Shown: positions 1-33,187 of the stretch, in pieces | How positions within the stretch are numbered: position 1 is the first letter of the stretch | How the letters are laid out: every line of letters begins with the position of its first letter | Origin: Macrostomum lignano | Lineage: Eukaryota | Length of the DNA stretch: 58,482 nucleotides | Direction of reading: 5' to 3' | Assembly: GCA_002269645.1 (NCBI GenBank) | Contig: NIVC01003540.1 | Span: 1 to 58,482, forward strand | Program-made: the position numbers and the translations under genes | The notes under the pieces: generated by a model | What the model saw: the letters and a program-made list of their open reading frames with translations, nothing else | Databases searched by the model: none | What the model was told of the DNA's origin: nothing

Positions 1-553
1 TCGATCTTTTTTTAATAACGATGTGGTCATCTCCACAACGTCTGAGATGCGTCTTTGTTTCTCTTAGACAAAGCCATGCTGGGATTTCAATAGTATATAC
101 AATCGAATGTGTGTGTAGTGTGTTTAGCGTTTTATTTTTGCTTTTATACAGCCGGCTAGGGTGGAAATGAAAGTTTCCAGAACGTAGTTAGCAAACAAGA
201 ACACACGGTGTACAAGCGGCAGGACCAGATCGCTAAATATGAAAACGAGCTAGCACCCAGACGTCACCCAGACGTCACCCAGACGTTAACTAGCTTCCGA
301 GCGATCGATTCCCTCCACCCGTTTGAAGTCCCTGTACATTTCCTTGGTTGATTGGGGATGTCAAAGCGGAAAGGAAAGCACGCGTGGAACTTGTACATTC
401 GCAAATCGATTAGAGGGCTGCGCTCCCTCAACAAATAGCAGTTACCCCACCCTTTTCAAAATGCACCTGTTGCGTTTGGCTGGCTGAGAATAATAGTTAA
501 GCCCTTCCCGACTCAAGCGCCTCTCTCTACCCCCAGCTCTTTCAGCAGTCTTC

Positions 554-1000
554 CTAGTACCTCGTTTGGAGCGCACAAAATAAACCCAGCTCCCTCTCTC
601 CCCGTGCAACCGCCCTCTCTCCCCAAACACCCACCCTCGCCGTCGATCCCCAACCCAGCTTTTTCTTACCAAAAATAACCGCCTTGACTAATTTCCGAGC
701 AATCGACTCACGAAATCCGCTTGAAGCCCCTATATTGTCTAGTCTCTTAAGCATTTCTTTGTCCCAGCGATTCTTCTCCTCAGGAAAATCTCTATATTTA
801 ACGTCGTGCCACATGCAGACAGAGTCTAGCTCGTTCACAGGCTCATGCCCAGGATTTGGATTATCGTTTGTATCTAACTGTATTTCAAGTGGATTCAAAG
901 GCCCGCAATATTTGTACCCGGGAAGTGTCCAGCCTTTGTTTGGATGAGGAAGCTTTTCTATCAGTCCATGTGAATCTAACTTACCACCAGAGCGTTGCAT
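554..1000 (-). CDS. Parvovirus VP1u-type phospholipase A2 domain protein (PLA2X-like), 148 aa
   Basis: LPGYKYCGPLN matches the Ca-binding loop (YxGPxN) and DSVCMWHDVKY the catalytic helix (DxxxxxHDxxY). Confidence 0.88.
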   Translation of the reverse strand: MQRSGGKLDSHGLIEKLPHPNKGWTLPGYKYCGPLNPLEIQLDTNDNPNPGHEPVNELDSVCMWHDVKYRDFPEEKNRWDKEMLKRLDNIGASSGFRESIARKLVKAVIFGKKKLGWGSTARVGVWGERAVARGERELGLFCALQTRY

Positions 1001-1029
1001 TATTTTATTTTAAATTTTCTTTTAAAAAA

Positions 1030-2061
1030 ATGACAGATCAGAAACTTAAAAAACTCTACTACAGCGACAAAGGATTCTTTGTAGGAAAAATGCAGTCACC
1101 AAACTCGCAGAACTAAGTAAGGAACCAAAAGCTAAAGTAGAAAAGTGGCTCTCTAAGCAGGCTGTCTTTCAAGTCTATTTCCCACCTGTTATATTTACAA
1201 GACCTCACTTTAGCATCTATAAACCTAATGAGGCGCACCAAGCAGACTTATTTTTTCCCCAATGACTCGGGCTACAAGTATGCTCTCACAATTACAGACG
1301 TTGCTTCCAGATATAAGGAAGCTCGCCCACTCAAGACGAAGAAGTCAGAGGTTGTTGCCAGCGCACTCCAAGATATTTATAAAAACTCACCCCTTAGTTA
1401 CCCTGAAATCTTTATGACGGACCCGGGTAAAGAATTCATGGGTGCAGTGAAATCACTTCTACATAAGCATGACACAAAAATTCGCTATGGCAGAACAAAC
1501 TTGCACAGAGACCAGGCTTTTGTGGAAAGATTCAATCTAACTCTAGCCAAGAGGCTATTCACTAAGCAGACAGCTGAGGAGCTGAAACTAAAAAGTGGTC
1601 AGTACTATTCAAAATGGACAGACCGGCTCCCACTGTTATAGAGCAACTGAACAATGAAGTCACACGTATGACTGGATTGAAACCATCCCATGCAATTAAA
1701 CAAGACACTGTCAAACTTAAGGCAACTCATAGAACAGACAACAACACTACAACCCAACAACACACACAACACAAAACACACCTCGAACTACCCTAAGCTT
1801 CCAGGAGTTGAATCACCATACATACTGACAAACTCTGAGTTTCTACGCTTTTTATATCTACCTGGAGAGCTAGAGAAAGACACCAAAAGAAGAGCTACAG
1901 ATCCATACTTCAGCCTTGATGTGCATAAAATAGACAGACATTTTACCTCCGACTCCGGTGATTATTACTTTTTATCTCAAGCCTTTAACCCTAAATCCCC
2001 CACGCGGTCATTCACTAGAGCTGAACTCCTAGTGATACCAGCTGACACAGAAATTAATTAA
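1030..2061 (+). CDS. Retroviral-type (rve, DDE) integrase, split by 4 frameshifts (~1090, ~1255, ~1628, ~1792)
   Basis: Stitched protein contains HQADL, ALTITDVASRY, TDPGKEF and FVERFNLTL, plus the C-terminal LYLPGELE..RRATDPYFS..RSFTRAELL typical of Polinton integrases. Confidence 0.9.
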
Positions 2062-2077
2062 AATATTAAAATAAAAA

Positions 2078-2524
2078 ATGACAAAGATTGAAACCAGAAC
2101 CATCAATAAACTCAATAAAATCATTGAATCAAAGAAACCAGGTATTATATCAATTAAAGGTGCCAAAGTAAAAATCGATCCCACGCAGCAAATACTTCAG
2201 TGTAATGAGCAAAGACACAGCATCACAGATGAAAAGTCAGGAGGAATCCTACCATTAGCAGCTCTTATTCCGATCATTGCAGGCGCTGTAAGTGCCGCAG
2301 GTGGTGTAGCTGGAGGTGTAGCAACTGCTGTTAAAGCTGGTAATGATAGAGCCCACCAGCTGGAATTGCAAAAGATTGCAAGAGATAAAGGTATAACAAT
2401 TAAGGCAGGAGAGGGCTGCCCGGATTTTGATGATTGTGAGCATGAAAATTCTGTAAGCAAGTCTGACATTGTCAAAGCAATCATGACACTACACAATGCT
2501 GGGTTTACAATAATGCGGATGTGA
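2078..2524 (+). CDS. Adenovirus pX/mu-like small virion protein, 148 aa
   Basis: KSGGILPLAALIPIIAGAVSAAGGVAGG resembles adenovirus pX (RGGILPLLIPLIAAAIGA), including the GG cleavage context. Confidence 0.7.
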   Translation: MTKIETRTINKLNKIIESKKPGIISIKGAKVKIDPTQQILQCNEQRHSITDEKSGGILPLAALIPIIAGAVSAAGGVAGGVATAVKAGNDRAHQLELQKIARDKGITIKAGEGCPDFDDCEHENSVSKSDIVKAIMTLHNAGFTIMRM

Positions 2525-2648
2525 TGAGGTTTAAAACCCCACTTTATCCAGCTTCATAAACCTAGCGCTACTTATAGGATGTAGAAACAGTTCAACTTTT
2601 CTATCAGGGTGGTCACCCTCAAAAATTTTGTTTATTTTAGAGAAAAAA

Positions 2649-5600
2649 ATGCCAAAAGCTAATCCAGCAAAAGATTTAGTCAACAAACATTTTGCGTCTC
2701 ATTTACCCTACCCTACAACCTTACAAGGCGTCTCATTTCAAGAAAAAGTAATTACTAAGAGAAGCATGCAAACAAAAGTTCAACACCGACCCTGGTCACC
2801 TGGGAAGCTATGAAAAACAGTTGGAAATCATCAAACAATTAGAATCCAACCAGTATGCGCCTATACAAAATCCTGCAAAGGAACACCAAGAGAGGAGTCG
2901 CAACTTGTTAACAAATATGAAACTCTCACTGGTGAAAAAGCAAAGTACCCACAAAATAAGCAGGAACAAGAGAAATTAGAGCAATTAATCCATTTAAAAG
3001 AGTCGGAGCTTGCCACTGAAGAGATTAATTTTGCACAGAGGAAGTTTACAGAACATTACATAGAGTACACAATCCCAATTAACGGCACCAACGGCACCAC
3101 CGCAAACATCTACGACTATAAAGACAGCATCCAATCAGTTGTTGATCACACACTCAAAACACGCAAGACCTTTAAACTACAGATATCATTCAAGATTGCA
3201 TTTTATATGCCTGCAAAACCCACTGAGCATCTCGAGTATTACATGACAACAAAGGCAAAGCCATTCACCCCTACAGACACACTGGATCCTTTCCTTCAAG
3301 ATGTCACTAAGAAAATTGAAGCGTTTACATCCAGAGGTTCCGGATGGGTCGTAGGAGGGATTCAAAGAGCAACTGTCATGGTCATGAAATATGACCCACT
3401 TAAAGCCTCCTCTTATATAGAGCTCCCGCATAAGCTAGCCGGTAAAAAAGCTTGCATAAATGTTAAAAATAAAGACAATTGCTGTGCTCTATGGGCAGTT
3501 CTTTCTGCACTTCTTCATGATAGTGTCCCTCACCACCCCGAAAGAACCTCAAATTATCAAAATTATTTCAACTACTATCTCATTGAATGCGAAAAGAAGG
3601 GAATCAGGTTTGACAAAGGAGGCTTGGCAATCTCTTAGATCCCAAAGCTAGAAGAAGTGTTTAATAACAAAATTAGAATCACAGTCTTTGAGTGGAGTGA
3701 GAAAACTGAAAAAGTTCAACTGGTCAGATGTAGCAAAGACGTTTTAGATCCTGAGGAAAAAAGGCGGACTGAAGTGGATCTTCTAGTGATTGGTAATTTA
3801 CTAGAGGAGGCTCACTATGTTTGGATTAAAGATCTTTCAAGACTCATTCACAAGCAGTTGAATAATCATCACGAGGCTGTTGCCATCTGCCGCTTGTGCC
3901 TTAAGCATTACAGTGGACCTGAACGCTTTGAAAAGCTAACAGAGCATGAATTATCATGCGAGGATCACCCGACAAACTGCTCTCTTCCTTCAGCTGAAGA
4001 GAAGTATCTCCGGTTTAAGAACTATCACAAGATGGAGAAGCTCCCATTTGTTGTATATGCTGATTTTGAATGCTCAATCATGCCAGAAACTCAAAAACAA
4101 ACTCAAACTCAAAAACATGTCCCCAATTCAGTAGCATATGCCTTTATTAATACAAAAGGACTTGTTGAGTATAATTATTTCTTTGGAGAGCAGTGTGTGG
4201 AGTAGTTTATTGCCAGAATGTTAGAGTTGCAAAGAGTAATTAGCACCCTTCAACCTGTTCCAATAAGTATGTCTGAGGAGGATGAAAGCAATTTCCTATC
4301 AGCAACTCATTGCCACATCTGCAGGAAACATTTAACTTGCACTAATATTAAAAACCCCACCGTTAGGGACCACTGCCACTTTACTGGGAAATTTAGAGGT
4401 GCAGCGCATAACACCTGTAATCTAAAGCTAAAATCGAACATTCATGATCTAACGATATTTTGTCACAACGCAAAGAACTATGACATGCATTTAATAGTTG
4501 AAAAAATCGGCATGATTCCAGACATACACCTTGACTGCATCGCAGAGAACAAGGAGAAGTTTAAGTGTGTTGATATTAAACAGGATAATTCGGGTAAAGG
4601 TGAAGGTTCGGGTACAGGTAAAATAAGACTGAAGGATTCATATCAATTTCTAGCTGCCAGTCTAGACGAACTAAGCAAGAATCTAAAAGATGAACAATGT
4701 ACATATACAAAGATATTTGCAAGTCAAATTAACAACAGTGATGAATCATTTAAACTTTTAAGAAAGAAAGGCTTCTACCCCTATGAAAATATTACTGGGT
4801 ATCATGTTTTGAAGGGACTACCACCACAGGAGAAGTTCTTTTCAAAGCTAACAGACTCTGGAATCTCTGACAAAGACTATGAGCACGCGAAGCATGTCTA
4901 TAATTACTTTAATTGTCAAAACTTCTTCCAGTATCACCTGCTTTACCTCTACACAGATGTGTTTCTGCTGGCTGATGTGTTTGAAACCTTCAGAGACACC
5001 TGGTACACAGCATATGGCCTCGATCCAGCACATTATGCGTCTCTGCCTGCCACTAGCTGGGAATCTTTGCTTAAAATGAAATGGGATCAAGATCCAGATT
5101 GGTACATTGAACTTCTTACAGACATTGACATGTACAATTTTGTCGAATCGTCAAAGCGAGGGGGAATCTCAATTTGCGTTAACAGGTATGCAAAAGCAAA
5201 CAATCCCTACATTGAATCTTACAATAAGGAGCAGCCCTCAAACTACATTACTTACTTGGACGCCAATAATCTCTACGGGTGGGCGATGAGTCAAGATCTT
5301 CCAGTTAGAGATTTTCGATGGCTACCCTCATCAGAATTCAAATGGGACTTTTCATTGGCTGCCATTTATGAGGTTGATGTTTACATTCCACCAGAGCTTC
5401 ACGACTATTTCTCTGACTTTCCACCCTTCCCAGAGAACATTAAGTGCCCGAAAATAATCGAAACTCCCAATGATAATAATGGAACTTGGCACCTGTCAGG
5501 AACAGAAAAAGAACATACAGAGAAACTAACACAGAATCTAAACAACAAGACACGTTACAAAATCCATTACAAACTGCTTCAATATTTTATCTCACTTGGT

Positions 5601-6560
5601 TGCAGGGTCACCAAAGTTCACAGGACTCTTAAATTTACAGAGGAAGCGTGGATGAAACCCTACATTGATAAGAACACCCAGTTTAGGACCAAAGCAACCA
5701 ACGACTTTGACAAGAACCTCTTTAAGTTAGCCAACAACTCCGTCTATGGCAAGACTCTTGAGAATGAGAGGAAAAGAACAAACCTGAAACTTGTTACCTC
5801 ATCAGAGCCTGCTGTTATTCAGGCAAATATGTCAAAGCCAACGTTCAAAGAACTCCATATCTTTAATAGCTACTTAGGTGTGATCATATTTTACAAAACC
5901 AAAGTGACGCTGCGCAAGCCGATCTATACAGGTGTCACTGTTCTCGACGAATCAAAACGTTTGATGTACCAGTTCTTCTATGGCATGAAGCAGCAGTACA
6001 AGGATAAAATGAAACTCTTGTACACTGACACAGACAGTTTTATTATGGACATTCAAACAGAGGACATTTATCAGGACATGCTGCAGCAAAAAGAGTTGTT
6101 TGACTTGTCTGAGTATGACGAATCTTGCAGGACGCTGAATGGTGATCAAGTGTTTGACGCCACTAACAAGAAAGTGATTGGGAAAATGAAGGACGAGATT
6201 GCTGGTGATATAATCACTGAATTCATTGGGTTGAGAGCAAAGTCCTATTTTGTAAAATGTGAGTCGTCAGACCCAATTAAAAAATCAAAGGGAATTCCGA
6301 AACGTGTGGTTAGGAAGGAAATTAATGAAGCTGAATACAGAGACGCCTTGAATTGCAACAAAAAGACATCACATGAGTTCTCAAAGCTACAATCTAAAAA
6401 CCATATTATTCACACAATTCAGCAAAAGAAGATTGGACTGTCAGGTGCAGATAACAAGAGATTCATTTTTGATGACAATATCAACAGTCTACCGTTCGGG
6501 CACTGGAGATTAGGCTTAGGAGATTGGTTTAGGAGGTTGAGGTTGGGTTTAGGAGATTAG
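2649..6560 (+). CDS. Protein-primed family B DNA polymerase with N-terminal terminal-protein region and endonuclease VII-like Zn motif; N-terminal frameshifts and in-frame TAG at 3636 and 4203
   Basis: RGSGW..YDPLKASSYIELP..CINVKNKD; ExoI YADFE; CHIC..RDHCHFTG..HNTCNL; ExoII HNAKNYD; pol motifs YLDANNLYGWAM, KLANNSVYGK and YTDTDS. Confidence 0.95.
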
Positions 6561-6617
6561 GAGATTGGGTTTAGGTTTAAGAGAAAGTTTAATAAACCTC
6601 ATAAAAATAACATAAAA

Positions 6618-7019
6618 ATGACGACAAATAACTTTCTGGAAGATTTGGCTAACGAACTGGAAATCCCAAACTTTAGAGGAATATTTATGAGGGACACTCT
6701 GCCTGATTTTCCTCTAAGAAAGGAATGCGGCATCATGAACTTTGACACCACCGATAAGCCAGGATCTCATTGGGTTTGCTGGGTGATTGATCCCGATCGC
6801 AAGCACAAGTGTTATTACTTCGATAGCTATGGGACGGCAGTACCAGAAGAGCTAAGAAATTATATGAAGGGAAAAAATAATACAAAAATTTACCACTCAG
6901 ACTTTATTCTTCAAGGTCTTAGCAGTGATATTTGCGGTGAGCTGTGCATGACTGTTTTGTATGCAATGACCAAAACACGAAAGACCTACAAGGAAATTAT
7001 TCGTACCTGTGTTTCATAG
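6618..7019 (+). CDS. Adenain-like cysteine protease (virion maturation), 133 aa
   Basis: GSHWVCW (His), YFDSYG (Asp) and QGLSSDICGELC (oxyanion Gln, catalytic Cys). Confidence 0.92.
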   Translation: MTTNNFLEDLANELEIPNFRGIFMRDTLPDFPLRKECGIMNFDTTDKPGSHWVCWVIDPDRKHKCYYFDSYGTAVPEELRNYMKGKNNTKIYHSDFILQGLSSDICGELCMTVLYAMTKTRKTYKEIIRTCVS

Positions 7020-7023
7020 GGGT

Positions 7024-7680
7024 TCATTGTGCATTTCTCGTTGTACTTCTCGTTGTCCTTCTTTCCACATAATGTTGAAGAACTTTCTCGAGTTCATTTC
7101 TCAGCTGACTCATGTCATCAGTACCGACCATGTTCAAGTTCATTCGAATTGATTGTTCATAAAGATCCTGAATGGTTTTGAACTCATCCTCTGAAATGAA
7201 CTTATCCTCGATTGCCCTTGAAATGTACCCTATGATTGATGTGTGCACCCCTTTCTCTTTTACTTGCTTCTCCTGTAGCTGCTTTAGTTTTTTTCGCCTG
7301 TTTCGCGCTACTGCTCCAGTAATTGCTGAAATAAGTCCACATGCAGCACCCACAGAGCCGAGTGGGATTGCGATTGGGGCTGTGATGACTGGCAACACTG
7401 AGACAGCTGCAGCAGATCCAGATAGAACAGACACAGATCCTAGAATCATATTGCTGTAGTCGAAAAATTTACAGTGGCTGTCATAGCGCTTAATTTTCTT
7501 TGTGTTGTGGAAAATATTTTTTTCAAGATCATCGCGCATTTTTTGAATCTCCACTAGTCGAAACTGTTGAGAGTTACAAGTAATGACGGGGTAGAGTTTT
7601 TGTTGCTCATATTGGGGTGCACTAGGTGCACTAGGTGTTGTGGGAGCGTTCGGATCATAAAGAGAATTTTGAGCATCCAT
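7024..7680 (-). CDS. Putative membrane-active virion protein (resembles the Polinton 'GasderminX' type), 218 aa
   Basis: N-terminal PSAPSAP and LYP motifs, FRLVEI, a long Gly/Ala hydrophobic hairpin followed by a basic stretch, and ISRAIEDKFISEDEF. Confidence 0.65.
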   Translation of the reverse strand: MDAQNSLYDPNAPTTPSAPSAPQYEQQKLYPVITCNSQQFRLVEIQKMRDDLEKNIFHNTKKIKRYDSHCKFFDYSNMILGSVSVLSGSAAAVSVLPVITAPIAIPLGSVGAACGLISAITGAVARNRRKKLKQLQEKQVKEKGVHTSIIGYISRAIEDKFISEDEFKTIQDLYEQSIRMNLNMVGTDDMSQLRNELEKVLQHYVERRTTRSTTRNAQ

Positions 7681-7790
7681 TTTTTAGGGAATTTTTTAAA
7701 AAAAATCGGCAACTATAGTTGGTGGTGGTTAGATTTGTTTTACGGTTGATTGCTTCGTCTGCAGTGACGGCAACAGGTCTCTGAATCTGC

Positions 7791-8533
7791 CTATTCATTA
7801 TCTGTGAGCTCCATTCTACGCATGATCTCAAACAAGTCGGTTGGATCACTTGTTTCCCTTGTGGTCTGTGGTGCCTCTTCAGCGTCAATGTTTTTGAGAT
7901 TATGCAAGCGTTCAAGACGACCGATTCTTCTCACCGATTTCTGCCATTCGTAAAAACTAAATCTACAAAGACTTTATTTGCAGTAATTCTTACTTTGATT
8001 TGATCATGCAACGCTGTTGACTGAGTCATGAACTCTTCTAAATTCCTCACTTTACCTGTGTTGGTTGCGACGTTTTCTTTAATTCTATCATGCAACGCTG
8101 TTGACTGGTTCATGAACTCTTCTAAATTATTCACTTTAGCTGTGTTTGTGAAAACTCCTTCTTCAAGAATGCGCATCCGCCTATCAATGGAGTTTCTCAG
8201 AAGATTAATTGTCGATGCTAAATTTGTTCTTAAACCGTTGATTTGCGAGACTGCCGAAGTTATTTCTGACCTTAGTTCATTAGTTGCGTGTACAACCTGT
8301 ACATAAAGCTTATCACTTTCAAACTTCTGCCTGGCTACTTTTATGCGGAGATCTTCTATGTTTATCTGTAGCTGGTGCATGGAGCGCTCTAATTGTTTCA
8401 GTCTGTTTTTATTCAGTTTGATCTCTGGGATCTTTTCGTCGCTGTTGATATATCGCCTGTCAAGTATGGATATTTGAGCTGATGTAAGAGCGCTGTTGCC
8501 AGAAATGGATTCACCTGCAAAGTTTATTGACAT
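7791..8533 (-). CDS. Coiled-coil protein with an internal 28-aa duplication; probable frameshift at ~7955 extends it to a stop at 7791
   Basis: 200-aa ORF with heptad character and the repeat TNT(A/G)KVxNLEEFMxQSTALHD. Adding one base in the A5 run at 7952-7956 continues it as YEWQKSVRRIGRLERL... Confidence 0.6.
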
Positions 8534-8549
8534 CTTTTAATAGCAAATT

Positions 8550-9349
8550 TTAAATTACAGTTCTTTTTTCTTTGCTGATAATCACAAACTGGTAAGGCTG
8601 ATTCCACTTGTCATAGCAAAGATTAACGAATTCCTCTTGTGAAATCTTTCTGCTTGAGTTTTTTGTTGGATTTATGAAATAGGCAGGCGCAATGACCTCA
8701 TTGTAAAATCTTTTTAACCTGTCCTGTGGAATGGTTGGAAACAGGAGAATCAGATTGCAGTTCCCGCGAATTGTTTTGTTCGGGAGCTCGAACCAGTTCT
8801 GTGCAATGTAAATTACATTACAATTGTTATGTCGTCCTCTTGTAAAATAGTTTTCTATCTGCTTCTGTGGGCCTGTCATACAATCATCAAAGACGATCAA
8901 ATGCTTTCTCCCCTTTTCTAGCTCATCTGGTTGGGGTAGAAGTTTGTTCTTTGGATCAGCCTGTGGATCTCCATAGGTGAACACTTTAATGTTCTGCCAT
9001 TTTTCATTGTCTTTGAGGTGCTTTGAATATTCAGCAGCTACAATTTCTGGGTTACTGGGAAGGCTCATTTGGTTATTAAAACATGCAATAATGTCCTCTT
9101 TGTTCAGCTTGTTTTGAAACCCTGCAATCAACATTCTATACTCATCTTGATACAGTGTGGGAGAGTAGATGTGCAGAGTGTCATAGTCGATAAAGCCAGG
9201 TCTAAGAAGCATGTTAAAGACTCTGAATGTTTACCTGAACCTGATGAACCAACAACAATGCATCTGAAATGACTCGGAATTGACTCGTGATGAGAAAACT
9301 TAATCTGATTACGCGTCCAGTGAGGATTGAAGTCGTTTGAAAAGTCCAT
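8550..9349 (-). CDS. A32/FtsK-like genome packaging ATPase (frameshift at ~9230)
   Basis: Walker A VVGSSGSGK(T), Walker B LIVFDD, and TRGRHNNCNVIYIAQ motif. Confidence 0.92.
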
Positions 9350-9387
9350 TTTTTCTATGAAAAAAATTAAATAATAAATCATTTAGA

Positions 9388-9595
9388 TGTGTCATTTCGG
9401 GACTTGAATGTGTCGTTTTGGGACTTAGATGTGTCATTTTGGGACTTGGATGTGTTATTTTGGGACTTAGATGTGTCATTTTGGGACTTAGATGTGTCAT
9501 TTTGGGACTTAGATGTGCCATTTTGGGACTTAGATGTGTCATTTTGGGACTTAAATGTGTCATTTTGGGACTTAGATGTGTCATTTCGGGACTAG
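9388..9595. repeat. 21-bp tandem array (~10 copies) inside the Polinton, upstream of the ATPase gene
   Basis: Unit GGACTTAGATGTGTCATTTTG; translates as THLSPKM repeats. Confidence 0.92.
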
Positions 9596-9618
9596 TCTTG
9601 TACCCTCGGAAAGTACCT

Positions 9619-10008
9619 TTAGTCAAATTTGAAACCACTTCCTTTTTTAATGCTTGCTCTCATCTTCTCATAGACTGCAGGGTCCACACTGTCTGGATTT
9701 GGGGCCAGCGGGGCCAGCGGGGCCAGTGGAGGTTGAATCTCTTGTTTAGGTGTTACAGTATCCTTTATCTTTTTGGCTGCTGTGGCTACACTGCCAGCCG
9801 CTTCGGCAACGTTCTTGATGTTCTCTTTGTTCTCTCCAATGACCTTAAAAATCTTAGCCCCCTGAGCGATCAAATCAGCAAGGCCATTCCCAGAGCGTTC
9901 TTTTCTTGGATAGTGGCCTGCAGGGAAAAGTCCAGATCCGCGTTTAATGAGATTAAGTTCCTCTTTGTCATAGTATTTGTCAATGTCTTTTTCGAAAATA
10001 AGAGGCAT
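9619..10008 (-). CDS. Small core-like virion protein (129 aa, MPLIFEKD...KKGSGFKFD)
   Basis: AAAAATG start at 10008 inside the 411-aa ORF; three GxG motifs (KRGSG, RSGNG, KKGSG). Confidence 0.55.
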   Translation of the reverse strand: MPLIFEKDIDKYYDKEELNLIKRGSGLFPAGHYPRKERSGNGLADLIAQGAKIFKVIGENKENIKNVAEAAGSVATAAKKIKDTVTPKQEIQPPLAPLAPLAPNPDSVDPAVYEKMRASIKKGSGFKFD

Positions 10009-10024
10009 TTTTACTTGAAATAAA

Positions 10025-11135
10025 TTATTTTTTGTTGAACCGCGAAAGCAGAAGCTCTCTCGCCTCTTATCGATGTATTTTCTCTCAAGCATTTTGTCCA
10101 GGATGTTGACAAATTCTTTTCTATTTTCATCTTTCATTCCGGTCTTTGCCGCTCCTAGAAGAACCGCTACTCGCTTGTAGAATTCAGGCATGCCTTTTCC
10201 GGAAGAGCTTGGAGGTGATTCGAATGATTGGTCAGAGGAGGAACTGTCATGTGGCGCTTGTCTTTGTTGAGGTGTGAATACTCTGTCATTGATTCGCTTC
10301 ATTCGTTCTGGGGAGAGCCGCTCTAATTGTCGCCAAGTATCAGGGTTCGTATCTTTGTACTGCGAAACAACAATCGGTTCTGCGGCGTCAAGTTGATCAA
10401 GTACTTGTTCAACCTGGGTTTTTTGTTGCTGTGGAGGTGGTGGTTGCTGTGGTTGCTGCTGTTGTTGTGGTTGCTGCTGTTGTTGTCTTATGACCTCTTC
10501 TTGATCTGGCAAACCAAACCATTGTTTAAAGTATTTGTATTTTCTAAACCTGTTCAAGTCAATCCTGTTTTCATGTAAAACTTTCAAAACACCGTTGTTC
10601 TTGAGCATATCTATATCCCTCTCTAAAGCGAAGGTAACAAGATCTTTGTAATTTTCGAACTGCTTTTTAGACGTTTTCTCTAGATTTTTAGTCATGTAGT
10701 CGAGTAAACTTTGAGTGAAGGGGATTCGTTTAGTTTCTGCGCCTTTATTGATTAAAATATTTTCCTTTGTCACTTCAATGTTGTAATCCGCCGGTTCCCC
10801 GGTAATATTTTTTCGCCAGGCGCTAATTCCAAAAATATATTTTCCATCATCCAATACGGGACCAAAAAGTTATCCGTCACTTTCATCTGCACTGGTTGTC
10901 CTGGTTCCTGAGCCTGTGGTTGTCCCGGTGAAGATGGGATTTTACCCAATGTGTTTTGCAAGTGGCTCTCTTGAATATCATCAACTGCTTCCTTCACAGT
11001 GTCGAGGTTTTTCTTCGCTTCTGTGTATCCGGGTTTGTGAAATTCGGTGGCTGCTTGGACAAACTCATTGTAGGATTGTTGCTCCTTATTTATTAGCCCG
11101 GTAACTCGTTTCTCTGCTTGTGCTAGCTTCTCCAA
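10025..11135 (-). CDS. Polinton conserved uncharacterised protein with Q/P-rich linker (frameshifts at ~10866 and ~10068; start uncertain)
   Basis: Repair gives DNFFGPVLDDGKYIFG and C-terminal RVAVLLGAAKTG..EFVNILDKMLE, ending at TAA 10025-10027. Confidence 0.55.
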
Positions 11136-11198
11136 TTCAGATATCTGCTGTGTACTTTTTCGCTTCGTTTCTTATTTTATTTTATTTTTAGTTAAAAA

Positions 11199-12493
11199 AT
11201 GAACGACCCACTGACACCAGTTTTCTACAAAATTAACAAGCCTATTTTGAGTGATGATAGCACAATCAAAGCGACTCAGGTAAGAGTTCCCAGTCAGGAA
11301 AATCAGAATGAAACTAATCTTGGTCCTGGCCAAACACTGACATTTACATACAATGGATGTTCGTCTTTGGTCAGTGTCCACAGTCTAAGGAGCGGCTTCT
11401 ATATGACGTTTCAATTCAAAACTAAAGGAGGCGCAGACGCCGCTCATGCTAATGATGATCTACACAATGCGGATGTCGCACTAACCAGTAATTTCTGGGC
11501 TTATATGTTCAAAGAGTTTAATGTGTCCAATGGAAGTACAGAGTTGGAAAGAATAGCAAACTTTGGTGTGGTCTATGATACCCAGTGCTTGATTGAGAAC
11601 CCGGATTTTATTCAGATGGGGAGCGGTGCTGGATTCATCCCCAATGAACAGACAGGAGATGAGAATGACCCTGGTTACAAAAAGAGAAAGGAGAGATACA
11701 ACTATGCTCTTGCTGGTGAGAACGATGCTGCTAAGAATCCGCTGTTTAGGTCTGTAGATATTTTTGTACCTTTGAGGTTTATGAGTGGTTTCTGTAATAG
11801 TTTCAATCGGTTGACAAGCAACTTTAGCTACACATTTAGACTGACTAGAGATGATCGGAACAGAGGAATTTGGTCGGGGCCAATCATACATCGATGGAGA
11901 TTAAGCTAACTAGCGTGGAGCTGTACTTAGAAATTATTGAGCCCAAGACTGCACTCAAAGCTGAATACTTGAAGGCGATTGAGAAAGACATTGATGTTGC
12001 TTATACAGCTTATATGTGCAGAGATGAGCGGAATGACGCAAGACACAATATTTGCATTAAAGAAGGCTCCTGTAGCAATCCAAGGTACATTATTGTCACT
12101 ATGAGGAATACAACTAATGTAGGTAGATATCTACATGGAAACATTCGATCGATTCAGCATGAGATCAGTGACAATTTATACCCTGCATTGCCACAAAATG
12201 GGAATTTCTCGGAGAACAAGATTAGTAAGTTTTACAATGAACTGTCGGACTTGGCTGTCAAAGAGAATAACGGTATTGTTTTGACAACCTTGCAGTATAA
12301 AAAACTATATCCAATATTTGGTGTTGATGTGACTGCTAGACAAATGCCTACAGACAATAGCCCTGTTAACATTGTGACTAATATCGAGCGGAAAGAATTT
12401 GGTGCCGCAACGGCTGTTGATCTGTTTATTATCTATGCATTTGAGAGGAAGATCAAGGTCAATATGATCAATAACTCGTCTAGTAAAGTTTGA
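11199..12493 (+). CDS. Double jelly-roll major capsid protein (frameshift at ~11870)
   Basis: ~430 aa when joined; PRYIIV, LYPALP..FSEN..SKFYNEL, YKKLYPIFGVDVTARQ; directly upstream of the penton. Confidence 0.85.
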
Positions 12494-12515
12494 ATAATTT
12501 TTTTTCAATAAAAAA

Positions 12516-13373
12516 ATGGAAGCCATAGCCGAAAGACTGAACAACATTGTTTCACACTCTAAGGAGAGCATTCCAATCACTGTAGCGGGTCGCATTACTG
12601 AGTCAAACGGAATCTTCATTCAAAAATTGGAGCAACCACTTCGTTTGGATCCCGAGGCGAATTACCACGTCTATCTCAATGATTTCACTGGGTGGTCAAA
12701 TGTTCCCAATGTGACAGCGGAAAATAACAAGTTTTATTACAAATGGAAGCGTACTACAACAGAGGTTGTGATATTTCCTGTCAGCACACAGAGCGTGGAT
12801 ACTTATAATTACTTCTTGGAGAACGTCTTCACTAAACGAAAGCATTTTGAGATACCGGATGAAAGCAAACCAGAAAATAAACTGTTCCCTGTTAGATTAA
12901 CTTATGATCTAACTGTCATGAGAGTTGTCTTGCAAGTTCATAAGGACGCAGAGGTAGAGTTTAAAGATGGCACTTGGTATCGCGAGTTGGGATTTGAAAA
13001 GAGAGTTTATGGTGGCGCCACAGACCAAAGCCCGCTGCAGGCGCCTGGCACTGTTGCTGTGTCCCGGCTAATATCCGGTATGTACTTGGCGCCAAATATC
13101 GCTGACATTGTCAAAGGTTTGAATATATTAATTCGCAGCAATCTGAGCCATGATTGGATATTCAAGGGCAAACGAACCAACATACTTTTTAACATTTCAA
13201 ACTCTGTTGCTGGTGGCAAAATGCTTGTGCAAAAGCCAAACCCCGTGAAAAGAGTGATTCTGAGTAATAGAGAGATACATGAAATCATTCTGCAGTTTGA
13301 AACAGAGGATGGCGTTGGTGTCGATTTTAACGGGGAAGAGTTTGTGCTAACAATTATTATTGAGAGAATGTGA
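12516..13373 (+). CDS. Minor capsid protein (penton), 285 aa
   Basis: PLRLD...L.DF.G.S.VPNVTAENNKFYY; IRSNL; C-terminal EIILQFETEDG..VDFNGE. Confidence 0.85.
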   Translation: MEAIAERLNNIVSHSKESIPITVAGRITESNGIFIQKLEQPLRLDPEANYHVYLNDFTGWSNVPNVTAENNKFYYKWKRTTTEVVIFPVSTQSVDTYNYFLENVFTKRKHFEIPDESKPENKLFPVRLTYDLTVMRVVLQVHKDAEVEFKDGTWYRELGFEKRVYGGATDQSPLQAPGTVAVSRLISGMYLAPNIADIVKGLNILIRSNLSHDWIFKGKRTNILFNISNSVAGGKMLVQKPNPVKRVILSNREIHEIILQFETEDGVGVDFNGEEFVLTIIIERM

Positions 13374-13434
13374 GTCGTCTTCAGACTTGTAAAATTACGA
13401 TATAAGCCGCCAGGTACAACCGTGTAGTTGGCTA

Positions 13435-13671
13435 CTACAACTGCCTTATAACTTCAGCAAAGTTATAATAGCTGTCAAAATTGTTAATGACTACTCCGTG
13501 TTTTTCAAACCAGTGAGATTTAAGTGCTTGATTAATATTAGGGACATTGATATCAACGCCGGGCCAATATTTTCTCATGTACTCGCTGCATTCTAGTTTG
13601 CATTGGTACTTACTCTTGTAATTAGGCTCGTGCGCTTTGTAATAAGAACCTGGGGAGACAACTGGAAACAT
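13435..13671 (-). CDS. Small orphan ORF next to the terminal repeat, 78 aa
   Basis: AAAAATG start as in the other element genes; no recognisable motif. Confidence 0.4.
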   Translation of the reverse strand: MFPVVSPGSYYKAHEPNYKSKYQCKLECSEYMRKYWPGVDINVPNINQALKSHWFEKHGVVINNFDSYYNFAEVIRQL

Positions 13672-13828
13672 TTTTAGAGAAAATTTAGATTTTTTTTCAA
13701 AGGGTAAGGACCCTGGGTTAGGGGATTTAAAGTCTTAGGGATCTGGTAGCACGTTGCGGATTGAATGTGGGGAGAAGAATGCAGATTATTTTCTGATTGT
13801 TTCGAAGATGCTATGGGTGGATTTGGAG

Positions 13829-14137
13829 CTGTTATGCTCAGAGCATAAACCCTCAGAGCATAACAGTAGGACACCTGTTATGCTCTGATTCTGTCAGGGA
13901 TAATATGGATGGATTTAATGGGATTATGGAGGATGTTTTGTGAGCGAGTGCGACCCCCTTTTTTCTGATTCTGTCGGGGATAATATGGATGGATTTAATG
14001 GGATTATGGAGGACGTTTTGTTAGCGAGTGCGACCCCCCTTTTTTTCTGATTCTGTCAGGGATAATATAGATGGATTTAATGGGATTATGGAGGACGTGA
14101 AAAATTTTGTCCCAAAAGCCCCCTCATGCCTTCTACT
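13829..14137. repeat. Right terminal (TIR) region of the Polinton: 14-bp hairpin plus ~80-bp subterminal repeats (x2.6)
   Basis: TCAGAGCATAACAG (13853) and CTGTTATGCTCTGA (13875) are inverted. CTGATTCTGTC(A/G)GGGATAATAT... recurs at 13885, 13965 and 14047. Ends in CTACT. Confidence 0.75.
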
Positions 14138-15462
14138 TGGCTTTGAGCTGGGGTGAGTTGCCTTGTGGCTTTGAGCTGGGGTGAGTTGCCTTGTGGCTTT
14201 GAGCTGGGGTGAGTTGCCTTGTGGCTTTGAGCTGGGGTGAGTTGCCTTGTGGCTTTGAGCTGGGGTGAGTTGCCTTGTGGCTTTGAGCTGGGGTGAGTTG
14301 CCTTGTGGCTTTGAGCTGGGGTGAGTTGCCTTGTGGCTTTGAGCTGGGGTGAGTTGCCTTGTGGCTTTGAGCTGGGGTGAGTTGCCTTGTGGCTTTGAGC
14401 TGGGGTGAGTTTCCTTGTGGCTTTGAGCTGGGGTGAGTTGCCTTGTGGCTTTGAGCTGGGGTGAGTTGCCTTGTGGCTTTGAGCTGGGGTGAGTTTCCTT
14501 GTGGCTTTGAGCTGGGGTGAGTTGCCTTGTGGCTTTGAGCTGGGGTGAGTTGCCTTGTGGCTTTGAGCTGGGGTGAGTTGCCTTGTGGCTTTGAGCTGGG
14601 GTGAGTTGCCTAGCGGCTTTGAGCTGGGGTGAGTTGCCTTGTGGCTTTGAGCTGGGGTGAGTTGCCTTGTGGCTTTGAGCTGGGGTGAGTTGCCTTGTGG
14701 CTTTGAGCTGGGGTGAGTTGCCTTGTGGCTTTGAGCTGGGGTGAGTTGCCTTGTGGCTTTGAGCTGGGGTGAGTTGCCTTGTGGCTTTGAGCTGGGGTGA
14801 GTTTCCTTGTGGCTTTGAGCTGGGGTGAGTTTCCTTGTGGCTTTGAGCTGGGGTGAGTTTCCTTGTGGCTTTGAGCTGGGGTGAGTTGCCTTGTGGCTTT
14901 GAGCTGGGGTGAGTTGCCTTGTGGCTTTGAGCTGGGGTGAGTTGCCTTGTGGCTTTGAGCTGGGGTGAGTTGCCTTGTGGCTTTGAGCTGGGGTGAGTTG
15001 CCTTGTGGCTTTGAGCTGGGGTGAGTTGCCTTGTGGCTTTGAGCTGGGGTGAGTTGCCTTGTGGCTTTGAGCTGGGGTGAGTTGCCTTGTGGCTTTGAGC
15101 TGGGGTGAGTTGCCTTGTGGCTCCGAGCTGGGGTGAGTTGCCTTGTGGCTTTGAGCTGGGGTGAGTTTCCTTGTGGCTTTGAGCTGGGGTGAGTTGCCTT
15201 GTGGCTTTGAGCTGGGGTGAGTTGCCTTGTGGCTTTGAGCTGGGGTGAGTTTCCTTGTGGCTTTGAGCTGGGGTGAGTTGCCTTGTGGCTTTGAGCTGGG
15301 GTGAGTTGCCTTGTGGCTCCGAGCTGGGGTGAGTTGCCTTGTGGCTTTGAGCTGGGGTGAGTTTCCTTGTGGCTTTGAGCTGAGTTGCCTTGGCTTTGAG
15401 CTGGGGTGAGTTGCCTTGAGCTGGGGTGAGTTGCCTTGTGGCTCCGAGCTGGGGTGAGTTGC
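14138..15462 (+). repeat. 28-bp minisatellite (~47 copies) containing GGG|GTGAGT donor motifs
   Basis: Unit TGGCTTTGAGCTGGGGTGAGTTGCCTTG. Confidence 0.97.
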
Positions 15463-15666: not shown

Positions 15667-16959
15667 CCCCTCCGGGATGAACTCCAGAAGAGCTGGATGG
15701 ATCTGCTGAATCCCAAAGGCAGCCCGCTTTACTTCTGGTGAGTCGCCTGCTGATGAAGTCAAATTCCAGTCTCACTAGATCTCCATCCAGTCTCACTAGA
15801 TCTCCATCCAGTCTCCCTAGATCTCCATCCAGTCTCACTAGATCTCCACCCAGTCTCACTAGATCTCGACCCAGTCTCCCTAGATCTCCATCCAGTCTCA
15901 CTAGATCTCCACCCAGTCTCCCTAGATTTCCATCCAGTCTCACTAGATTTCCATCCAGTCTCACTAGATTTCCATCCAGTCTTCCTAGATCTCCACCCAG
16001 TCTCACTAGATCTCATCCGAGCCTCACTCCTCAAATCTAGGCGTGAAGAGTTCAAGAAGCACGGCTCTTGCGTGGCAACTGATCCCAGGTTCAACACAAC
16101 TTTTTTGTACTTTAAAGCAGCGCTTCAGCTTAACCAAAAGTACAACCTGAGCGAGTGAGTTCAGCTGCAATGGCTTTCGCCGTGATTTAATAAGCAGTTC
16201 ATCACCTGCACCATCTCTGATAAACTTCAGAATGTTGCAAAAGGGGGCGTGACGCCCAGCTCAACCCCTATTGATGTACGTTTGGCCTCGCGGCTGTGAA
16301 CTGATTATGTGGCTCCTTTTATGACTATTACGAGCTAATGCTAGCTAAGAAATTCTGAACTGTCAACTCGCACCTCTGACACCCCCAGGCATCCAAGATT
16401 CGCAGCGCGCTGCAGAGCGCCTTCGGCTTCAAGCCCATGGTCCGCTGCGCCAAGACGGTGAGATCATACTCACCCCACTCCGACACCCACCCCACTCCGA
16501 CACCCACCCCACTCCGACACCCACCCCACTCCGTCACCCACCTCACTCCGACACCCAACCCACTCCGACACCCACCTCACTCCGACACCCACCCCACTCC
16601 GTCACCCACCCCACTCCGACACCCACCCCACTCCGACACCCACCCCACTCCGACACCCACCCCACTCCGACACCCACCCCACTCTATTACCAAACAACTT
16701 GCAGAATGGCCAGACATTTCTGTACGAGCTGCGCCTGTGCTTCGCCAAAGACCTGAGCCCGAATGATTGCAATGAGGAGCCTCAGCCTGCCCGCCCCTTC
16801 ACGGTGTGGGGTGTGCTGGAGAAGACGGCGGCCCAGCTGCACCAGATGCTGTTCGGCTGGTCGACCCCGGGGTCGGTGTGGCTGCCGCGCCGCTCGAACG
16901 GGACCTACGAGTGCGGCGACGGCGAGCTGGTGCTGCTGCCGGACGCCGCTCAACGATGA
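15667..16959 (+). CDS. RNASET2: Ribonuclease T2 family, 3' exons: 15667-15737, 16041-16154, 16231-16275 (1 nt short), 16389-16457, 16705-16959
   Basis: Spliced product LRDELQKSWMDL..FWREEFKKHGSC (CAS II)..YFKAALQL..KYN..IRSALQSAFGFKPMVRC..LYELRLCFAKDL; GT-AG boundaries at each exon. CAS I exon not found. Confidence 0.8.
15767..16030. repeat. 21-bp intronic minisatellite
   Basis: Unit CCAGTCTCACTAGATCTCCAT. Confidence 0.92.
16470..16684. repeat. 17-bp intronic minisatellite
   Basis: Unit CCGACACCCACCCCACT. Confidence 0.9.
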
Positions 16960-17479: not shown

Positions 17480-19350
17480 TTAAGTTGCCGCCCGCTTGCC
17501 GTACTGCAGCGGCGGGAAGTTGACGCGGAAGCTGACGTGGGAGGCGCACAGGGTGGTCAGCAGCTCCAGCAGCTCGGCCAGCGAGATCACGGAGGACCCC
17601 ATCCAGAGGCCGAGGATGCCGCCGAGATGTGACAGCAGGTCCACGGTGGAGTAGCTGCGCTCCTCCGCGATGTACACCACGCTGAGGCTGAACGGGTACA
17701 CCTGCACCCTTAAGAAGTGCCTGGAGATGAACTTCTGCACCTGCAGGCAGTGCGACTCGTTCGCGAACCTCCTGCTGCTGTCCATGCGGGTGCAGTCGCC
17801 GGGCCGCAGCCGCCGGGCCCGCACGGCTCTCACCACAGCGGGCAGGCGGGCATCGGGCAGGCTGGAGTTGGCGAACTGCTTCAGGTACGAGTCCAGGATG
17901 CCCGAGAAGGTCTGGAAGATCAGCCTGGCGTCGTAACGGCCGTGCAGGTGGCTGGCGGAGTCGGGCAGCTCGGAAGTGAAGATCTGAAACTGGTAGCTCG
18001 ATGAGGAGCACTGGTCCTCTGCGTGCTCAGCCTCCTGCACCAGCTGCTCGGCCAGTCTCAGGTGGCAGCGCAGCGACTCCCAGTTGCTCCACAGGTCCGG
18101 CATGTTGAGCCTGACGAGCTCCCTGCAGGCTGAGAAGTTCGCCGCCTTGAGCAGCCCATCGCACAGGTCGCTGATTCTCCGCTGGAATCTTCGGAAGCCG
18201 CCGCTCTGAGCGTCGAAGAGGTCGGCGCAGTGCCGGCTCGGCCTCAGGTGCGTCGGCAGGCCGACGGGGCCGGTGGGGAGGCAGCCGCACCTGGCCTGCA
18301 CCTGCGCCGCCTCCTGCCACTCCAGCCGGTCCGCCAGGCTGGTCTTGTAGGTCCTCACCGTGGGCACCAGCGGGTCCCGAACGGAGAACTCCGAGGCCTC
18401 CTCGCACGGTCTTTGCGGCGTGTTGAGCAGCTGAGTTCGCACCTCCCGGAGCCCGATCTTCGTCTCGTGGCTGGTGGCAGCCATGATGGAGTCCTCGCTC
18501 ACCCTCGGCATCGAGTCGGGCTCGTGCGCCGTCACCAGCACCCCGTTCGTCTCCAGACCCGTATCCGTTGAGCCGTCCAGCATCGCCGGGTCGCTCCAGT
18601 TGCGGAAGTGCGGGTCGGAGGCTGGCGAGTACATGATGAGGCTCAGGCCATCGTGCGGCCTCTCCTGGCTGCCCTCGGGGCGGAAGGTGAAGCAGTTGCC
18701 GTACTGCCGGTGGTAAAAGGCCGAGAACTGCGAGGGCTGGCACAGCGAGCCGCAGAACTTGCACTGGATCAGCAGGTCCTGCACGGACAGCCCCAGGGCG
18801 GTGGCGTTTCCAAGAAAGTGCAGCCCCGGCACCGACTTGGGCAGCTCGAAGACGCCGTGCGAGAGCGTCAGGAAGCTGCTGAGGTCCGGGATTCGCTTCA
18901 GCGCGTCGGGGTAGCCCGCCCTGAAGAAGCGCATCTGCCAGGCCTCGCACACGGTCACGCTGGGGAATCTGAAGTCGTTGAGGATCTCCCGCGTTGAGGA
19001 CTGCAGTGGGAACTTGTAGTACTCAGACACTGCTGGAACACGTGCAGGCCCAGGCAGCTCAGCATCACGGCCAGGACCGCCGCCCACGCGACGCCGCAGG
19101 GCGTTGAGCCCACGTGCCACAGGCCGTGGATTGCCGCGGTGTCCAGGAACTTCGCCACCGTCCGCCTGCGATGGCGGGACAACGCCAGCTGGCGGCACTT
19201 GGCGCCACCAACGACGGAGGCTGGCGCGGCTGGGGCGCGGGACGGCCTCGTGGATGCGTGGACCGCCGCCGACTCCTCCCGCAGCACCCACACAGGCGGC
19301 TCCTCCAGCGGGATCTGCACCGCTCGCTGCGACTCCGAGCAGTCGGCCAT
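17480..19350 (-). CDS. DEG/ENaC (ASIC/FaNaC-like) sodium channel, single exon, frameshift at ~19030
   Basis: Pre-TM1 FLDTAAIHG, TM1, YYKFP..FPSVTVC, YGNCFTF, Cys-rich thumb, and TM2 LLSHLGGILGLWMGSSVISLAE. Confidence 0.9.
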
Positions 19351-21402
19351 TGCCAAGACAGGGATCTCTGAGCTCGCACCCTCGAGGAGGAGAGCAGGAT
19401 ATACGGCTCGTAGAGTGGGGCGTGAGGGCGGGAGGCAGCCACTCCCGCCTGGATTCGCTGCGGCTGCCTCACTCAATCAGCAGCCTCAGACCCAAATCCT
19501 CTCCATCTCTCCCGGCCCGGCCAAAAAGTCGGCCAGATTAGTGCCTGGCAGCACGGAGATTATGAATCGGCCACCCCATGTGAGTGTCTGCCGCAGCCCC
19601 GGCACTCCGGGAGATTGCATTCACCAAAGCTGGCCTGACAGATTGCGGATGACTTGGCCGCGCGAGCCGCCTCCCGGGGCTCCTGCTGGCGTTATTTATG
19701 CGGCAAGGAAACCGGCTCAGCCCTGTCCGGGCTGTCTATCTGGGCTGATCCTATAAAAAAGTGAGCCAGGCTGCTGACCGACTCAGTCGTTCCCGACCGA
19801 GCCGAACTGCTCGCCACACACGTGGCTCAATAATGCATGGCGCTCCCACAGCTCTGCTTATTGACTTGGATGCTGTTCTTCTGGAAAACAGCCTGTACTT
19901 CAGGCCATAACATGGAAAGCTTAACAAAATGGAAAGCCGCCTGCTGTCCTCGAGCATCGACCGGCCCTGTGCTCGGGTCAGACTTGATTTCTCGCTGGAC
20001 ATGGCTGGGCCAGTGGCTGCATGGGTCGAAGTCTGCGGTCACTACTCATTAGACCGACCCCCCGCGGGAGGCTGGGTCGGAGCTGCATCAGGCCCACTTC
20101 TCTCAACTCTCACAGGATCGTTGAGGTGTTCCGCTGTCTGACAGCTCGGCTGCTCCCCCTGCCAGCCATAATGGATCAAACTTGTCCTCTGCTGCCCCTA
20201 ACACGAACAGGCACAGCACAGGAGGCGTCACGAAACAGCGGCTGTGCAGTCTCATATTGATCTGTCACAGCATCATTTTTTTAGATTTCTTCTGTTTTAG
20301 CAAGTGACTGTTCGGAGATCTTCGAGATGCCATCCTCTCAGGTCCTCAGGGCCGGGCGCTAAAGCCCCCCCCCCTAGATCCGTCCCTGATTTCTTCTGCC
20401 TGCCTATAGCAAGTACAGCACGTCCTTTTAAGCAGATGCAAGCCGTATGAAAGATTTAAATAAAGGATTACACATGCCATTTTCCAGAGCCATTATCATG
20501 AACCCTGGGGAATCTGAGGATTTATAGAAATCCAAAATCCCCAAACACGCATATTTTATCTCATGTAAAACATTGACAAAGCGATTTCCCAAGACAACAT
20601 CGAATACTAACGTATAAAACGCCTTGTACTCGTAACTGAAACAGTGTCTTTATAGCTGTGCGTTGTCCTAATTTACTGCTCAATAAGTACCAGTTATGAA
20701 CTCGAGTCAGGCTTGTTAACTGACGCACTATATTTTATTATATTTATCATTTTATATGACATTTAATATTCCACCGATGCCAAATCTGATTCATTAGTTA
20801 AAATACAAATGTCAATTTTGTTATTATAATACCTTGTGCACCTTGTTGGCTCATCCAATATTATCCAATATACGTAGTATGTTTCAGCATTTGAACCTCT
20901 AGTAATTAACAGATGACGCAATGCCAACTCACAAGTATGTACAGTGTAAAGTGTACGTTTGCATTTTCGCCTCTATCCCAAAGATTGATCTGATTGGCTG
21001 GCGGGATCAGCCAGTCCTCTCTCCTGCGTGCCAGCTTGTGCCGTATCACAGTGGAGAGATATGAAATGCGAAAGCCAAAACCAAATTTGGACATCCAGAG
21101 TTTCTGGGCTTCGCACAGGTCATTCAGCTCTGGTGCAGACGAACTTGTAAATAAGAGGGTGTCTGCGACCTCTATAATTGGTCCAGACTGGTCCGATGAG
21201 TCATCCAGTCAATTCACCCACGCCACCACCCCGGCCCGGCACACGGCCCACACCCACCCCGCCTCCATTCAGCTCCACAAGCCAATGAATTAAAGCAGCC
21301 CCAAATAGTCAACCAAGCCTGTGACTGTGACCCTCACTTGCACTGCGAACTGTTACCGAGAAAGTCTTCGCTATTCCAGCCACAGCAGGCTGTTTTATCA
21401 TC

Positions 21403-30927: not shown

Positions 30928-31001
30928 GACCGTTGTATGCCAGGAAATCCCAGTGTATATATTGTCTTCCAAACTATGGTAGGACATAGATGGGAGTACG
31001 A

Positions 31002-33015: not shown

Positions 33016-33031
33016 ATTTCATAGCATACAT

Positions 33032-33187
33032 GCGCAACCTAGGGATTCGCCCGGCCGTTTCTATTGGCAACACACACATGTAAGTCGCTATTGGCTGAGA
33101 GCATTCACGTGACTACTATTCTGTCCAATAGCGACTTACATGTGTGTGTTGCCAATAGAAACGGCTGGGTGAATCCCTAGGTTGCGC
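33032..33187. mobile_element. 156-bp near-perfect hairpin MITE
   Basis: 63-bp arms GCGCAACCTAGGGATTC...GTCGCTATTGG and its reverse complement (2 mismatches); ~30-nt loop containing CACGTG. Confidence 0.8.

Follow-up and report, generated by a model that had tools for sequence, protein, structure and literature searches.

Can an endogenous Maverick/Polinton in an animal genome still make particles, and with which proteins would such particles breach a host membrane? We address this for contig NIVC01003540.1 of Macrostomum lignano (assembly GCA_002269645.1), whose entire length of 58,482 nucleotides is called the window below. The window holds one integrated, endogenous copy of a Maverick/Polinton (adintovirus), for which an original prediction, made from the sequence of positions 554 to 13671, had named ten open reading frames (ORFs): integrase, protein-primed family B DNA polymerase (pPolB), protease, ATPase, major capsid protein (MCP), penton, phospholipase A2 (PLA2), a pX-like protein, a hydrophobic hairpin and a coiled coil. 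All ten are indeed present, as judged from a six-frame ORF list, Pfam and the ORFs of sibling copies, and the gene inventory bears out an endogenous Maverick with a full morphogenesis gene set. The family is a young one, and we consider it likely, at a rough probability of 65%, that it spreads at high copy as capsid-packaged linear DNA and that the window copy is mobile only via proteins of sister copies.

The element, its copies and its core genes

The window begins inside the element, whose left 2.3 kb lie beyond the contig edge; two further contigs carry the identical insertion with the same flanks, and there the full element measures 16,570 bp. Comparison of the same-site contigs places the right end at 14137, correcting the earlier end at 13671. 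The right terminal inverted repeat (TIR; 13508..14137, about 630 bp, with an 80-bp internal repeat) is 98.9% identical to its left counterpart in these contigs, and is followed by a 6-bp target-site duplication (TSD; 14138..14143), the insertion lying within a 28-bp host minisatellite. Our sample of copies comprised 15 of the 39 top penton matches outside the window and is biased to the closest; 14 contigs were examined, of which ten were two-ended. These ten span 14.9-20.1 kb, and nine of them, the window site included, have identical 6-bp flanks. Targeting of minisatellites was considered and set aside: three of the ten two-ended sites apparently lie in tandem arrays, yet 19% of the flanking DNA is tandem repeat and the result is not significant.

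Across the genome, candidate loci number 388 with the penton as query, 455 with the pX-like protein and 426 with PLA2. Every match that was scored was confirmed (40/40 penton, 150/150 pX-like, 150/150 PLA2), giving at least 150 copies. All 40 scored penton matches among the 388 candidates are at least 99% identical, and all 150 scored PLA2 matches among the 426 candidates lie above the Pfam cut-off, 149 of them free of internal stops. The window site is assembled three times (C3540, C4945, C2606) with the same flanks and other sites twice, which inflates the copy counts. The family is nevertheless young and high-copy, with cores 95-99% alike. Many short TIR-only derivatives were suspected as well, a notion left unsupported by 565 TIR candidates against 388 penton candidates, and no relative locus was confirmed in scans of viral contigs and metagenome contigs.

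The rve integrase (1030..2061, plus strand; PF00665 above cut-off, E 3e-8) is split in the window and open over 362 amino acids (aa) in a same-site contig; Pfam gives it no chromodomain match. Other, unrelated chromo-integrase families of the genome (L071-L082) are 26-28% identical to it. The pPolB, with an endonuclease-VII-like insert (2649..6560, plus strand), was recognised from motifs read by eye: all six are readable in its translation, and we take them to be Exo I-III and Pol A-C. It has no PF03175 match at E<=0.1 in Pfam and no sequence match in the PDB. The adenain-like (C5) maturation protease (6561..7019, plus strand) is intact in the window, where its match to Peptidase_C5 (PF00770, E 5e-4) falls just under the cut-off that a sibling copy exceeds. 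The A32/FtsK packaging ATPase (8550..9382, minus strand) matches Pox_A32 (PF04665, E 4.5e-6) where the ORF is open in a sibling, its pieces in the window scoring below the cut-off, and the double jelly-roll MCP (11199..12493, plus strand) matches PF21738 (E 6.5e-9) on a 432-aa ORF of a same-site contig. The penton, or minor capsid protein (12516..13373, plus strand), is intact and has no profile match. Its structural model, a weak one, gave 23 BFVD matches at E<=0.001, including adomavirus LO5 and mavirus/virophage minor capsid proteins, and in a wide PDB fold search the mavirus penton came second (Z 7.3, root-mean-square deviation 3.4, 115 aligned), on a par with non-viral jelly rolls; neither penton nor MCP had a sequence match in the PDB.

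Ratios of nonsynonymous to synonymous change (dN/dS), from 18 pairs of natural ORFs, mark penton (0.03) and MCP (0.05) as the most constrained genes, both values being rough since they compare subfamilies in which dS is saturated. PLA2 follows at 0.10, then polymerase (0.08-0.17), integrase (0.15-0.16), a 404-aa ORF (0.15), a 129-aa ORF with G-x-G motifs (0.22), a terminal ORF (0.23), the pX-like gene (0.25-0.28) and the coiled coil (0.22-0.39); the ratio is undefined for the ATPase. By this measure capsid, PLA2 and pX-like genes are under purifying selection.

Several frames are broken in the window, and a 416-aa ORF there is two genes merged. Comparison of the three same-site contigs revealed 38 indels, every one frame-changing, and 15 substitutions; 13 of the 38 indels touch a run of at least four like bases, against a background of 12.9%. 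This indel-heavy pattern suggests long-read assembly error, and because indels outnumber substitutions to this degree many of the frame breaks are likely artefacts. The window differs from both other contigs at 20 places; set against unlinked copies, the window stands alone at ten and the two contigs at six, with four lacking a clear outcome. Breaks confined to the window include those in the PLA2 tail (near 650), integrase, coiled coil and MCP, and the last is likely an assembly error. Other breaks recur. All three contigs share an in-frame polymerase stop near 3636, where 10/10 unlinked copies differ, and a second stop near 4203 occurs in two of the three. Frame breaks in the polymerase (near 2900), the ATPase (near 9200) and the 404-aa ORF (near 10850) are likewise common to all three, that in the ATPase being different in 9/9 unlinked copies; ambiguous shared calls comprise two in the integrase and a further one near 4800. 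Because the polymerase stop and the ATPase break recur in all three contigs, the window insertion is likely non-autonomous, and the earlier claim that this copy can itself form particles finds no support at a site with pPolB and ATPase broken in every contig.

Separate PLA2 and pX-like genes

A parvovirus-type PLA2 stands alone at 554..1009 on the minus strand (PF08398, E 7e-14). It carries the Ca-loop YCGP and a His-Asp dyad, the catalytic motifs of the parvovirus VP1u PLA2, and is predicted to act as a phospholipase; no capsid protein is attached to it. A conserved KLGLG motif follows the domain in the window, where the tail is frame-shifted near 650 in this contig only. Similar KLGxG-like motifs come after PLA2 in stand-alone and fused relatives alike, and may be protease sites.

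The pX-like protein (2078..2524, plus strand; 148 aa, intact) lies above the cut-off of PF05829 (E 4e-7), and all 23 aligned pX-like proteins keep a GG motif followed by a hydrophobic segment, as in adenovirus pre-pX. The mu peptide of adenovirus pX is Arg-rich and DNA-binding; the alignment reveals no Arg-rich counterpart of mu upstream of the GG site in the pX-like protein. The GG and hydrophobic part matches adenoviral pX residues 48-71 (PDB 9lr9_E, E 0.016).

As predicted, the PLA2 and pX-like genes are separate, and lie on opposite strands, in the window and in 10/10 further loci. The supposition that such separation is unusual is not supported; it is the rule among relatives. A length-free search found 643 PLA2 relatives, of which the best 150 were analysed (100 of them at most 200 aa long, some being fragments), and pX was absent from all 150, both by Pfam and by our own profile, which recovered 17/17 held-out controls. 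Length-limited searches agree: 9/9 close PLA2 homologues carry PF08398 only, and PLA2 is listed in none of 39 pX-like homologues.

Fusions of other kinds do occur among these best 150 relatives, 17 with an N-terminal DUF5679, 14 with an rve integrase and one with an adenain protease. The integrase fusions (P0062, P0066, P0069, P0084, P0089, P0109, P0111, P0131, P0157, P0164, P0165, P0170, P0180 and P0187) have PLA2 in front of rve, three with a chromodomain as well, and share a median pairwise identity of 37%. The same two genes stand head-to-head in the window (554-2061) and are not fused; at 12 loci of other integrase families in the host genome no PLA2 was found, and a limited literature search, covering sources in part, returned no published description of a PLA2-integrase fusion. 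Our data suggest that the published PLA2X fusion is one arrangement of several, with PLA2 near the window lineage either free-standing or joined to integrase or protease.

Small proteins, variable arms and flanking DNA

The hairpin ORF (7024..7680, minus strand; 218 aa) has eight homologues and, by model and hydropathy, a hydrophobic turn at residues ~78-125 between two long helices (model confidence 62). It had been labelled GasderminX-like. Neither it nor its eight relatives has a gasdermin or Adeno_PX match in Pfam, and the pX tail of GasderminX is missing. No gasdermin is among the listed PDB fold matches of the model (Foldseek, VIA-align), whose top rows are generic long-helix bundles; this does not exclude a gasdermin fold. 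The leads point instead to iridoviruses and, weakly, to SLATT proteins: the model's three BFVD matches at E<=0.001 are all unnamed invertebrate-type iridovirus proteins, four SLATT-named rows follow at E 0.08-0.4, and NCBIfam SLATT_1 is matched at E 0.069 with 13 bits, far below its 41-bit cut-off. The protein thus looks weakly SLATT-like, and a SLATT-type membrane protein of two helices is a likelier identity for it than a relative of gasdermins. In the excerpts of PMC12220804 that we draw on, SLATT domains are tied to both cell suicide and entry, and their pores are proposed to serve endosomal escape. The SLATT proteins of polinton-like and giant viruses described there share the two-helix hydrophobic hairpin; our ORF differs in scoring 13 bits where the cut-off is 41 and in having unnamed iridovirus proteins as its closest folds.

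The coiled-coil protein (7791..8536, minus strand; 28-aa repeat, 248 aa in same-site contigs) had also been counted among the membrane-entry candidates. Its maximum hydropathy is 0.63, with no hydrophobic or membrane segment, so that a role in entry is not supported; it is possibly fibre-like.

A further ORF of 129 aa (9619..10008, minus strand), hidden by a frame break and missed in the original prediction, carries three G-x-G motifs with a strongly amphipathic helix directly after the second. By hydrophobic moment this helix falls within the top 0.7% of 3512 windows, and it is unchanged in 8/8 ORFs shown; for entry the ORF is a better candidate than the coiled coil or the hairpin. Its place beside a glycine motif presumably resembles that in adenovirus pVI, and the ORF is a candidate for a protease-released, membrane-active core protein of the pVI/Cupiennin-like lytic-peptide kind.

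The remaining features of the element are a ~404-aa protein with a Q/P-rich middle (10025..11171, minus strand), a 21-bp tandem array at 9383..9593 (assigned to neither strand) that varies from 5 to 17 units between copies, and a small conserved ORF overlapping the terminal repeat (13435..13734, minus strand; no family match). At the left edge, 1..77 on the minus strand is the start of an accessory ORF cut by the contig edge and 248 aa long in a same-site contig. In other copies this slot is filled by divergent homologues: products are 20-35% identical or unrelated between copies with cores 95-99% alike (L014, L019, L025, L032, L039, L042, L047). Upstream of the ORF, on the same strand, consensus matching alone picks out a TATA-like box (143-148) and a heat-shock-element-like motif (170-182, one mismatch). 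The latter recurs in 5/10 accessory ORFs checked (window; L019, L028, L042, L047) and is perfect in three, two of them near-identical copies, with 0.25 expected per 350 nt.

Two capsid subfamilies with ~79% amino-acid identity can be told apart (L016, L034, L059-L070). Recombination is suggested by patchwork copies whose ATPase regions are 78-80% identical, and a penton fragment of the other subfamily lies in some left arms. A DIRS-like retroelement with SAP, reverse transcriptase and tyrosine recombinase is nested in the left arm of one copy (L026:491-4192). No group I intron was matched by Rfam in the window or in seven loci. Nor is GGNCC specifically avoided in the window element, which has 16 sites against 21.9 expected, a ratio of 0.73 that equals that of host DNA.

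Contigs from putative RNA runs cover the whole element, and in run X12 they join across host introns; DNA carry-over from hundreds of copies could mimic this. Horizontal transfer to organism B (run X11) was rejected, as the same run holds host flank exons almost unchanged, which is more readily explained by a close relative or by differing labels. To the right of the element, window 15757-58260 holds host genes: an RNase T2 exon (~16040-16150), a single-ORF amiloride-sensitive channel (17480-19468), RhoGAP (23044-23955), LAMP-like (41149-42717) and F-box/WD40 (47423-52739) genes. The flank also contains a DDE transposase (57304-58260), many minisatellites and, at 30960-33089, two inverted 14-bp tandem arrays ~1.3 kb apart that look like a foldback element or a miniature inverted-repeat transposable element.

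Placement of the family and competing readings

The family probably belongs on the group 2 / Alpha side of the adintoviruses (Polintoviricetes), a placement made from gene content without a tree. As far as the excerpts of PMC8502044 and 10.64898/2026.06.19.733378 go, it shares with Mavericks/Polintons, that is adintoviruses, the pPolB, rve integrase, A32 ATPase, adenain, double jelly-roll MCP and penton, as well as TIRs, a 6-bp TSD and PLA2; some Alpha maps (Fig. S2) bear a SLATT label, to which the weakly SLATT-like hairpin may correspond, and the second source calls phospholipase common in group 2. PMC8502044 defines PLA2X, GasderminX and Cupiennin, and describes adintovirus DNA that co-purified with insect-cell particles. 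Unlike the Alpha adintoviruses in these excerpts, in which PLA2 bears a C-terminal pX (PLA2X) and the polymerase is of the pfam03175 class with an OTU domain, the window element keeps PLA2 and pX apart and its polymerase and integrase lack PF03175 and chromodomain matches. Spodoptera Sf-Maverick 1 and 2 (PMC5803895, in part) resemble it in a gene with N-terminal parvovirus-type PLA2, an endonuclease VII signal in the polymerase and the core set, and differ in a chromodomain on the integrase and a polymerase matching DNA polymerase B2 profiles. Likewise, the vertebrate Mavericks, as excerpted from PMC8097293, are alike in size (mean 16.9 kb), TIR length, 6-bp TSD, AG-rich termini and core genes under purifying selection, and differ in gene order and in a list of core genes that includes neither PLA2 nor hairpin. 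Their maximum of 287 copies is exceeded by our candidate copies, some sites being held by the assembly in two to three contigs.

The idea of PLA2-aided entry and the gene set itself are already described for relatives: part of PMC4642659 (2015) proposes Polinton lipases as packaged and aiding entry. Cleavage motifs are treated in 10.1101/341131, in the excerpt of which adomavirus LO6, clustering with adintovirus Cupiennin or adenovirus pX, occurs in small virion bands, suggesting cleavage. By analogy with such relatives, the element would replicate by protein priming from its termini, integrate via the rve enzyme, and have its DNA packaged by the ATPase into a jelly-roll capsid. The adenain-like protease would cut small core proteins at GG or G-x-G. 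Such cuts would expose the pX-like protein's hydrophobic segment and, in the 129-aa ORF, the amphipathic helix; with PLA2, the two may breach the endosome. The window copy, with polymerase and ATPase broken, would depend on proteins of sister copies to move. A bolder version is doubtful: a family that is a living endogenous virus of animals, with three separately encoded, protease-activated membrane breakers in its particles (PLA2, pX-like peptide and amphipathic peptide), a heat-shock promoter on the accessory gene and PLA2 as a roving module that enters the particle alone, on integrase or on protease, always before the same glycine motif.

Several observations weigh against spread as packaged DNA. 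The evidence consists of assembled contigs alone, so that particles and free linear genomes are inferred, and purifying selection speaks of replication in the past rather than of activity now. The fit of the cleavage motifs to the adenovirus consensus is loose. The 129-aa ORF matches no family and nothing in the PDB, and six other windows are at least as amphipathic as its helix; the hairpin ORF has a dN/dS of 0.66-0.72, at low divergence and from few changes. The penton model is of low confidence (pLDDT 42), its best named matches being mostly minor capsid or penton proteins. Finally, a single open polymerase frame is found in 0/11 sampled unlinked copies as assembled, so that an autonomous copy is not demonstrated. 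Over the 2.8-6.1 kb of core covered in each, these copies hold 8-19 indels that change the frame, and assembly error alone could account for the missing polymerase frames.

The same 0/11 would be expected of a germline-amplified transposon, recent or already dead, in which capsid and entry genes are inherited baggage and no infectious particles are made now. An MCP deletion in one copy and nested insertions in others fit such a history, as do the vertebrate Mavericks, 96% of whose loci are degraded and whose particles have not been observed according to the part of PMC8097293 used here. Yet the two most constrained genes are those of the capsid, and they stay open in most copies; the excess of indels over substitutions makes many breaks likely artefacts; and copies that are patchworks of two subfamilies suggest co-replication. 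We regard this account as unlikely, though it is the strongest rival.

Improbable, too, is a reading of the family as a virophage-like parasite that exploits a large DNA virus infecting the host, with the hairpin serving not in entry but as a SLATT-type effector of cell death or defence. The iridovirus matches of the hairpin model, the Nucleocytoviricota and Preplasmiviricota clusters among the Atlas neighbours of one relative, and the link of SLATT domains to cell suicide besides entry (PMC12220804, in part) are in its favour; the SLATT match is far below cut-off, however, the heat-shock-like motif before half of the accessory ORFs checked points to host transcription, and no helper virus was found, none having been searched for. 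Least probable is a window copy that is itself particle-competent and armed with a gasdermin-derived entry protein, for although its capsid, penton, protease, PLA2 and pX genes each have an open frame in at least one contig of the site, the shared polymerase and ATPase breaks largely refute it and nine hairpin proteins lack any gasdermin or pX Pfam match.

To conclude, we favour a young Maverick family that is likely spreading as packaged linear DNA. Whether animal Mavericks form infectious particles, and how these enter cells, is an open question, and the gene content of the window leaves that picture unchanged. The family is otherwise an ordinary Maverick; its value lies in its youth and abundance, in the overlooked 129-aa ORF and in the roving PLA2 module. 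Its copies number in the hundreds and are 95-99% alike, its capsid genes are constrained and its sequence turns up in runs of eight studies, which together recommend it for an observational search for particles.

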